DNA of 53,470 nt, taken from positions 1-53,470 of IMG/VR virus record IMGVR_UViG_3300037258_000095. One strand, 5' to 3'. Shown one piece after another: positions 49,569 through 50,683 of this stretch (the first letter of the stretch is position 1; every line of letters begins with the position of its first letter). This stretch comes from a virus. Taxonomy: Duplodnaviria; Caudoviricetes. Under the pieces are notes generated by a model. That model was not told the origin of the DNA and did no database searches. It saw nothing but the letters and a program-made list of their open reading frames with translations. A program made the position numbers and the translations under genes.

Positions 49569-49922
49569 ATGCCAGCAATAACCGAGTTTCATATTCAACG
49601 CGCTGTGTGCATCTATCTCGACGCGCACAAATTCCCCGACGTGCTTTATTGGCATACGCCGAACGGCGGCAACCGAGATCCCCGCGAAGGCAAGCGCTTG
49701 AAGGAAATGGGCGTTAAAGCCGGCATTCCTGATTTGTTTTTCGTTCGCGCTGGTCGCATGTACGCGCTCGAATTGAAAGACGAATCGGGGCGGCTGTCTG
49801 CGGCACAAGTCGACATGCTGGCGCAGCTCACAGCGGCCGGCGTTCAAACCGCCGTGGCGAATTCATTGGCCGCCGCCAAGCAACAAATTTTTACGTGGGG
49901 GTTGACAGTAAACGCAAATTAA
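49569..49922 (+). CDS. VRR-NUC nuclease
   Basis: [21 protein letters not shown]...GRLS..Q. Confidence 0.9.
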
Positions 49923-49938
49923 GACAGTATACGTTAAC
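49901..49938 (+). promoter_or_regulatory. Promoter of phage ctrA with palindromic motif and CtrA-like box
   Basis: GTTGACAGTAAAC 49901-49913; GTAA-N7-TTAA 49908-49922; extra TTAAC at 49934. Confidence 0.65.
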
Positions 49939-49960
49939 GATTTGGAACGGAGCGATTCAC

Positions 49961-50683
49961 ATGCGAATCCTGCTTATCGAGGATAATGCGCTCGTAGCGC
50001 AAGCGATCGAATTGTCGCTGAAATCCGAAGGATTCAAAGTGTACACCACCGATCTCGGCGAGGAAGGTGTCGATCTCGCAAAGCTGTACGACTACGATTG
50101 CATTCTGCTCGATATCGGACTGCCGGACATGAGCGGTTTCGATGTGCTTGCCCGGCTTCGTGTTGCGCGCGTTCATACACCCGTGATTGTCGTTTCGGGT
50201 TACGCCGATATCGACATTAAGGTGCGCGCTCTTACCGCAGGTGCCGACGACTATGTGACCAAGCCGTTTCACAAAGACGAGCTTGTCGCACGCCTTCACT
50301 CAGTCGTGCGCCGTTCCAAAGGTCACGCGCAGTCGATTATTCAAGTCGGCGATCTCGTGTTGAATCTCGCGAGCAAAACCGTCGAAGTAAACGGACGCCC
50401 GGTTCATTTGACCGGCAAGGAATATCAAATGCTCGAATTGATGGCGCTCCGTAAAGGCGTCACTCAAAACAAAGAGCAATTCCTGAATCACCTTTACGGA
50501 GGCATGGACGAACCGGAACTGAAAATCGTCGACGTGTTTATCTGCAAGCTACGCAGGAAATTGCGTAACGCGTCCGGCGGAATGGAATACATACACACCG
50601 TGTGGGGCCGCGGTCATCACCTGGCCGAACCGATAGAAGCCGCGCCCGCAAAATCGACCGCCCAAGCAAAGGCAGCCGCGTAA
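49961..50683 (+). CDS. ctrA: Phage-encoded cell-cycle response regulator CtrA (240 aa)
   Basis: [20 protein letters not shown]51, [64 protein letters not shown]-terminal AA. Confidence 0.95.

Follow-up and report, generated by a model that had tools for sequence, protein, structure and literature searches.

A complete CtrA-type regulator maintained in a temperate siphophage and its possible role as a mimic of the host cell-cycle regulator

In alphaproteobacteria, CtrA heads the control of the cell cycle, motility, the envelope and gene-transfer agents (GTAs). A complete gene of this type lies near the right end of IMGVR_UViG_3300037258_000095, an IMG/VR virus record (Caudoviricetes) of 53,470 nt with a CheckV completeness of 86%, which was analysed over its whole length and is called the window below. 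The locus raises the question why a temperate phage should keep an entire CtrA of its own. The links known so far are phages that read the host CtrA through binding sites, and a receiver-less CtrA fragment in roseophages. The answer preferred here, to which about an even chance is given, is that the phage protein is a CtrA mimic that would bind CtrA-type DNA on the host chromosome with an altered promoter preference and a loosened coupling to ChpT. A shared class of phage promoters would fire, presumably during lytic development; phage CtrA would then dimerise, bind CtrA-type boxes, most likely on the host chromosome, and take over or distort the CtrA regulon (origin silencing, division, motility and envelope genes), acting with its own promoter preference and largely independently of the host CckA-ChpT relay.

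The phage ctrA occupies positions 49961..50683 on the plus strand (ATG start, 240 codons plus stop). The open reading frame (ORF) listed here starts with GTG and covers 49895..50683 (262 aa); the start is placed at ATG 49961 because every CtrA homologue aligns from there, which gives a protein of 240 aa, and a GGAG ribosome-binding site (49949..49952, +) is seen in the sequence 8 nt ahead of it. The product was originally predicted to be a 240-aa OmpR-family regulator with CtrA signature blocks, and family searches agree: Pfam Response_reg (PF00072) matches residues 3–112 (5.3e-30) and Trans_reg_C (PF00486) residues 145–219 (6.4e-18). The CtrA equivalog model NF045991 of NCBIfam gives 364 bits, a small margin over its cut-off of 350 bits, whereas cellular CtrAs score 390–434 on this model; the next family, PmrA, gives 160. 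The AlphaFold2 model, built on a 49-row alignment, has the canonical elements and fold (pLDDT 92.5). CtrA-like proteins, the phage one included, are split from PhoB/OmpR outgroups with support of 100* in a quick tree of 105 rows and 100/99 in a careful maximum-likelihood (ML) tree of 44 rows, so that the protein does not cluster with other OmpR regulators. A CtrA-type gene, rather than another OmpR-family regulator, is thus supported by sequence comparison.

The gene lies inside an element bounded by attachment sites, at the end of the replication module and 2.4 kb from attR. ARAGORN finds tRNA-Pro(CGG) at 48..124 (+), the integration target, the 3' part of which belongs to attL (75–127); attR at 53106..53158 (+) is an exact copy of 75–127 (53-nt direct repeat, family D7, 100% identity). 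The structural module is of siphovirus type, with major head protein, portal, large terminase, tape measure and tail fibres. The element is a temperate siphophage integrated in tRNA-Pro, and the prophage location first proposed is borne out by these repeats and by the DNA polymerase, VRR-NUC, SLOG, excisionase and integrase genes on the same strand as ctrA. Because ctrA lies between attL and attR, it is taken to be a xenologue or paralogue and not the single chromosomal orthologue of the host.

Phage CtrA was compared with 80 cellular CtrAs, which are the best loci nearest to the window with one genome per species; positions are called invariant within this sample. The loci (67–74% identical) come from Bradyrhizobium, Pseudolabrys, Tardiphaga, Hyphomicrobium, Robiginitomaculum, Phenylobacterium and others, and in a search of 5.8 billion proteins the top match other than the protein itself has 74% identity. 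Over residues 1–226 the phage protein shares on average 72.4% (maximum 73.5%) with the cellular CtrAs, which share 91.1% (minimum 81.4%) among themselves. This divergence is even across the two domains (70.8% and 73.3% identity). The phage protein departs from the sample consensus at 60/226 positions, including 27 of the 165 positions that are at least 97% conserved. Five top matches (P0003–P0007) were considered as a possible phage clade and rejected, being ordinary cellular-type CtrAs with long tails and higher bit scores.

Selection has nevertheless kept the protein. Comparison with viral and cellular CtrAs by NG86 gives pairwise dN/dS ratios of 0.12–0.18, with dS of 1.5–1.9 in five of the six window pairs (dS was not computable for the sixth, with L017); these ratios are if anything overestimated, because dS is near saturation. 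Neutral evolution, which would have spoken against a functional gene, is thus not what the ratios indicate, and they show, at the level of sequence, an intact ctrA under purifying selection. The gene is not a recent capture and is best seen as a long-resident part of the replication/early module.

Second copies of CtrA are rare in cells. Among 301 sampled alphaproteobacterial genomes (including two unpublished ones, G644 and G445, with one match each), 221 have a match at E ≤1e-55 and 181 have one over the NF045991 cut-off, and none has two over it. A second, weaker match occurs in 10/301, nine at 189–225 bits and one at 329 bits. The latter (L213; G571:C3:196551-197219) is 51% identical to the window's protein and adjoins another OmpR-type regulator; no window-phage gene is found within 19.9 kb of it.

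The receiver domain (residues 1–120; 49961..50320, +) has a whole acceptor pocket in the alignment columns, with E7, D8, D51, S79 and K101. Its changes concern the surface read by ChpT. In the available part of the description of the Brucella ChpT-CtrA structure 4QPJ, the CtrA contacts are D9, A11, S15, L18 and M19, and the close approach of the helices is said to hinge on the Ala-Ala contact (PMC9981736). Phage CtrA has N9, L11, A15, L18 and S19 at these positions and keeps one of the five, L18; in the cellular sample D9, A11, L18 and M19 are conserved in 80/80 and S15 in 75/80, and the D51 and D9N of the original prediction are both correct. The changed contacts lie in modelled helix alpha1 (residues 10–21), except N9 just ahead of it. 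In post hoc hypergeometric tests, P is 0.018 for the change of four of five contacts among all positions and 0.014 for that of three of four invariant contacts among invariant positions.

The alpha4-beta5-alpha5 face, presumably the dimer face as in the OmpR family, retains its charged residues K87, D96, D97, E107, R111, R117 and R118, and alpha5 has I112L and A114S, which none of the other CtrAs compared shows. Degradation of CtrA by ClpXP requires a receiver-domain determinant in addition to the C-terminus. The phage protein ends in AAA, in line with the predicted Ala-Ala, and the 80 cellular CtrAs end in AA (19), PA (47) or SA (7), among others. According to the available part of a review, ClpXP prefers non-polar C-termini.

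The winged-helix DNA-binding domain (residues 125–226; 50333..50638, +; alignment and AlphaFold2 model) is conserved where it reads DNA and altered around it. The recognition helix (188–205) differs only by I190V and K199R, both conservative, at 2 of its 17 cell-invariant positions. Within the conserved stretch 167–191, GVTQNKEQF stands in place of the consensus GTTLTKEMF, that is T167V, L169Q, T170N and M173Q, before and within helix 171–179; each of the four replaced residues is found in 80/80 cellular CtrAs, T168 is kept, and position 170 is T or S in 119/119 top matches. The wing has E212H, Y219H, V220H and R222A, with WGRGHHL for WGRGYVL (Y219 and V220 80/80 in cells), and the first description of T170N, the GTTLTKEMF block and the wing was accurate against the cellular sample. 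T170 is the residue of ctrA401, as predicted, and in the available text of Delaby 2019 it governs, together with T168, the switch between late-S and G1 promoter classes. Because T170 determines promoter class, the altered promoter preference put forward in the original prediction may fairly be inferred.

The canonical CtrA box is TTAA-N7-TTAAC. In the phage, TTAA-N7-TTAA occurs 0 times against 0.33 expected, sites with one mismatch to TTAA-N7-TTAAC occur 4 times against 5.45 expected, which is chance level, and no 4- or 5-mer direct repeat stands out at a spacing of 10–11 bp. Since the phage has no canonical box, the targets of phage CtrA, if it reads CtrA-type DNA, are predicted to lie on the host chromosome.

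Viral relatives place these changes in a series. A first IMG/VR scan found 13 loci with CtrA relatives that are 48–66% identical to the window's. In six of them (L003, L004, L009, L010, L012, L013), genes for a single-stranded DNA-binding protein (SSB) and for a VRR-NUC nuclease lie upstream of ctrA, as the VRR-NUC ORF does in the window (49506..49922, +; PF08774, phrog_824). Five of the six also have a match to the phage DNA polymerase encoded upstream of the window's ctrA (46793..48874, +; phrog_1252, 549 bits; syntenic in L003, L004, L009, L012 and L013), and L010 is without one; across the syntenic set, including cousins with swapped receivers, the polymerase is 60–70% identical to the window's. 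The syntenic copies of CtrA either carry D8P/S/A and D51E/A or have an N-terminus that is truncated or replaced, and the window copy is the only one of the set with a canonical pocket. CtrA stands beside an integrase, helicase/methylases, or primase/ligase in L005, L007 and L011, and nothing informative matched in the flanks of L002 and L008. No other window gene was found near the ctrA loci of the 80 genomes.

A second scan, with the pattern of the recognition helix, gave 186 stretches in IMG/VR, 169 of them confirmed relatives, and the following counts refer to the best 80 of the 169. Full-length proteins are encoded at 26 loci, the DNA-binding domain alone at 51, and intermediate forms at three. 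Among the 26, the residue at position 51 is D (10 proteins), E (6), N (3), A (2), G (1) or I/F (4), so that 16 lack D51; E/D7, D8, D51, S/T79 and K101 occur together in six, A11 occurs in five, and seven are only 31–39% identical and probably not CtrA proper. Glu51 is found in the full-length proteins of L215, L217, L218, L220, L224 and L228, mostly with Pro, Ser or Asn at position 8, and D51E, which serves in laboratory work to mimic phosphorylated CtrA, is described as phospho-mimetic in the available part of the Jorvik paper. The phages closest to the window by polymerase (L096, L097 and L101; polymerase 70% identical) have proteins of about 200 aa at the position of the window's ctrA after VRR-NUC (L096:3602-4240, L097:5686-6366, L101:8770-9450), which combine a CtrA-type winged helix, a coiled-coil-like linker and an unrelated N-terminal domain that is not a receiver.

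The relatives thus point to a common direction, in which the DNA-reading head is kept and the phospho-receiver lost or replaced, and this is also the direction of the preferred reading of a mimic on host DNA. In this series, the window copy marks the end at which the protein is full-length and its pocket intact, whereas the other members have lost or inactivated the receiver. With four of the five ChpT contacts replaced, and with syntenic relatives that lack D8 and/or D51, the original prediction that the phage may plug into the CckA-ChpT phosphorelay loses ground; the evidence leans to a loosening from the relay and not to use of it.

The trees were drawn with five PhoB/OmpR outgroups from three genomes (in the 44-row ML tree), since the best 150 matches of the representative search are all CtrA-like and unusable as outgroup. 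In the 105-row quick tree the position of phage CtrA is unresolved. The 44-row ML tree places the window with L005, L003, L004, L009 and L010 (46/70), then with L002 and L007 (81/76), and this viral group next to Bradyrhizobium CtrA (85/93). L006 and L011 stand apart within the Caulobacterales/Robiginitomaculum clade (100/97 and 98/97). End branches are 1.16 for the window and 0.7–1.4 for the viral proteins, against a cellular median of 0.12. Taken with synteny, since the tree alone is insufficient, this is read as an old acquisition in the replication-module lineage and at least one independent capture elsewhere.

Expression of ctrA is probably tied to the rest of the phage by a promoter motif. 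The 11-mer TTACTGTCAAC or its complement has 11 copies in the window against 0.40 expected, and each copy precedes an operon, on either strand. The oriented copies align as GTTGACAGTAA(A/G)C, followed after about 10 nt by a -10-like element, which in most copies has a TG ahead of it. The phage-type promoter of ctrA (49901..49930, +) has GTTGACAGTAAAC at 49901–49913, inside the last codons of VRR-NUC; its -35 TTGACA (49902–49907) and -10 CAGTAT (49925–49930) are separated by a spacer of 17 nt, and 30 nt separate its end from the ATG. Replication and structural operons are preceded by this motif too, and expression of ctrA is on this ground tentatively placed in lytic development. The motif promoters lie at 4098, 12263, 23490, 28539, 30194, 32215 and 34149 on the minus strand and at 35861, 36392, 43156 and 49901 on the plus strand, and variants of the motif occur at 15467, 42636, 22527, 25737 and 35413. 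In itself the 13-mer is nearly palindromic (GTTKAC-W-GTAAAC), and the divergent region 42612–42714 has variants with a fuller palindrome and no -35; the motif may double as the operator of the phage repressor.

Several observations weigh against a CtrA mimic that acts on host DNA apart from the relay. An intact acceptor pocket is hard to explain were phosphorylation irrelevant, and the alpha1 changes might retune the pairing with ChpT rather than abolish it. Cell-invariant positions are changed in the DNA-binding domain (Y219H, V220H, R222A, E212H, T170N), so that the protein might bind DNA less strongly, or at other sites, instead of in the manner of CtrA, and the recognition helix is common to the second-scan set partly by construction, being the scan pattern. 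The grouping of the window with the syntenic viral CtrAs has weak support, with long-branch joins and a program warning. The promoter that the original prediction assigned to ctrA is backed by the motif copy and by TTGACA-17-CAGTAT, but it is absent from the list of a generic promoter scan because its -10 is weak and matches only 3/6 positions. A strong terminator-like hairpin with a T-run (10 pairs, 9 of them G-C; 49524..49557, +) also stands upstream of ctrA, after the listed ORF 48908-49516 (+) and before the coding part of VRR-NUC. The timing of ctrA, lytic or lysogenic, is read from the shared promoter motif alone.

Other explanations fit parts of this evidence. A rather unlikely one, the model of the original prediction, is that phage CtrA is a good substrate of ChpT, either activated with the host cell cycle or draining phosphate from host CtrA and CpdR, which would tie phage decisions to the cell-cycle state. 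The retention of a pocket that only 6/26 full-length viral relatives keep looks selected, and the AAA end fits the ClpXP preference for non-polar ends given in the available part of the review (19/80 cellular CtrAs end in AA); however, the changed ChpT contacts include A11L, at the Ala-Ala contact, and M19S, the trend of the lineage is loss of receiver function, and a scan of approximately 50 window ORFs, which cover the small ORFs only in part, revealed neither a kinase nor an Hpt domain. The protein might instead act against CtrA as a dominant negative, forming mixed dimers or occupying boxes without activation, so that CtrA activity falls, origin silencing is relieved, the host stays replication-competent and phage DNA synthesis is favoured. 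This is quite unlikely, although the gene lies in the replication module, the charged residues of the alpha4-beta5-alpha5 face are kept, and the altered wing and T170 region could cripple activation: the window-unique I112L and A114S could equally insulate the protein from mixed dimers, and a phage with its own polymerase and primase-helicase may not need the host S-phase.

More improbable again is a regulator internal to the phage, whose altered DNA-binding domain would read a phage-specific site, activate (late or early) or repress the operons of the phage itself and play no part on host DNA. Many viral loci encode a CtrA head without a receiver (51/80), the RDJLphi1 gene lies between homologues of GTA regulators, invariant positions of the DNA-binding domain are changed, and a strongly conserved 13-mer stands at 11 promoters. 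Yet the recognition helix is changed only conservatively and at two positions, neither a canonical box nor a 10–11 bp direct repeat is enriched, and a near-palindromic 13-mer containing a -35 is less what a tandem dimer of OmpR type would read than what a dimeric repressor or sigma-70 would. That ctrA is a passenger in decay, a host gene once captured and drifting without function, is scarcely credible. It would account for the long branch and the 27 changed cell-invariant positions, but not for a frame intact over 240 codons, the low dN/dS, the kept catalytic residues and recognition helix, the confidently predicted fold, a syntenic position in six other phages, or the presence of a promoter, a ribosome-binding site and translational coupling to the next ORF.

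The preferred reading of a mimic on the host chromosome has a wider form, which is possible but doubtful. Phage CtrAs may be a widespread, unrecognised class of mimics that keep the DNA-reading head and escape the relay by three routes, namely deletion or replacement of the receiver, a natural pocket of D51E type that resembles a phosphomimetic, or, as in the window, a rebuilt ChpT-contact helix in front of a pocket that is intact. The window copy would then be insulated, with its own promoter-class preference through T170N, and would enable the phage to force a CtrA-ON or CtrA-OFF state on its host at will.

Compared with chromosomal CtrA (Caulobacter, Brucella, Bradyrhizobium), the window protein has the same two domains, the pocket, a near-identical recognition helix and a non-polar C-terminus. 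It differs in being phage-borne, in its identity of approximately 72% to cellular CtrAs, which are approximately 91% identical to each other, and in the changed cell-invariant positions, among them four ChpT contacts, T170 and the wing. The nearest described phage protein is gp37 of RDJLphi1 and RDJLphi2, annotated as 'transcriptional regulator CtrA', with a CtrA head that is 43–51% identical over about 80–107 residues; RDJLphi1 gp37 is noted as CtrA-like in the available parts of Fogg 2019 and Hynes 2016, and the text of Huang 2011 does not mention it. It has 151 aa and no receiver, whereas the window protein has a full receiver with an intact pocket. The gp37 gene lies between homologues of gafA and rcc01866 in a virulent GTA-related phage, whereas the window's ctrA follows VRR-NUC in a temperate one, and tblastn of 41 window proteins (gafA not among the queries) against the RDJLphi1 locus matched only the exonuclease, the DUF2800 nuclease and ctrA. 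The original statement that a few phages are reported to carry ctrA therefore holds for this receiver-less version; no full-length phage CtrA was found in print or in GenBank, although supplementary tables of Mascolo 2022 and Delaby 2019 may list more.

Other phages are tied to the alphaproteobacterial CtrA circuit without a CtrA of their own. In the available text on 'lytic deferment' (Mascolo et al. 2022; Jorvik), phages controlled by the host CtrA have dense CtrA-binding sites and use the host protein, whereas the window phage has no canonical box and its own regulator. The GcrA homologue of phiCbK is likewise a phage copy of a host cell-cycle master regulator, as given in the available part of Mascolo 2022, from another protein family. 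A complete and maintained phage CtrA would offer a natural experiment on the insulation of response-regulator specificity (ChpT contacts) and on promoter-class choice (T170), and the viral series from an intact pocket through a D51E-like pocket to no receiver supplies ready-made variants. The series suggests that phages in soil and water bacteria repeatedly adopt the strategy of hijacking the CtrA regulon.

The neighbourhood of ctrA is that of a replication and integration region. From approximately 43.9 kb the plus strand encodes dCMP deaminase, a DUF2800 nuclease, a Gp2.5/Enc34-like SSB, a Fic-like ORF and the DNA polymerase, followed by an ORF of unknown function, VRR-NUC, ctrA, a 193-aa ORF, a SLOG protein, excisionase and integrase. 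The true start of VRR-NUC is probably downstream of the hairpin, as the family match begins at residue 21–26. The 193-aa ORF (50683..51264, +) has a signal-peptide-like N-terminus and an ATG overlapping the ctrA stop (TAATG, 50681–50685). It has no Pfam, PHROG or NCBIfam match and is not found beside ctrA in related phages; an SxH...AxD-like stretch and Atlas matches to Peptidase_M15_3/M15_2 clusters at 0.86–0.88, below the 0.9 line, give a lead that it may be a peptidoglycan peptidase of M15 type. Next come a SLOG/YAcAr-family protein (51319..51735, +; PF10686, phrog_289), an excisionase-like ORF (51732..52031, +; phrog_1840, 9.3e-5) and a tyrosine integrase (51884..52993, +; PF00589).

The identity of the host is hinted at by the tRNA region alone, which best matches a Pseudolabrys metagenome-assembled genome (MAG), with 92% over positions 24–124. 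The 312-nt right flank was sought in 301 genomes from the family of this MAG, with no match, and in 401 genomes from the order to which a Bradyrhizobium genome belongs, with a single 38-nt match at chance level. A search for the phage DNA polymerase in 5 genomes and in 401 sampled Alphaproteobacteria was negative, so that no genome paired a host ctrA with a phage one. The sequencing runs listed comprise two soil-metagenome DNA runs, one of them possibly the source of the record, and no RNA run; the bacterium that carries the prophage is taken to be a soil organism.

The element also encodes helicases, a primase-helicase and three DNA methyltransferases, located at 37927–39270, 30762–31541 and 41740–42612, all on the minus strand; two are of N6/N4 type and one of C5 type. 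CcrM was considered as an identity for the three and ruled out (at most 85 bits against a cut-off of 830). Together with dCMP deaminase (43908–44351) and a dNMP kinase (522–1199), they represent a heavy investment of the phage in nucleotide and DNA modification. The small Fic-like ORF (46431–46871, +), which overlaps the start of the DNA polymerase ORF, has a partial Fic/DOC match (PF02661, 30 bits), and in L097 and L101 an ORF 48% identical to it comes after the CtrA-like gene. A pentapeptide-repeat protein (PF00805; 36412–37344, +) with 28 copies of a 15-nt unit lies directly behind a motif promoter. The 3' part of the N6/N4 methyltransferase-like ORF at 30762–31541 (-) contains an exact 50-nt tandem duplication (30776–30875), which, not being a multiple of three, may have shifted its frame.

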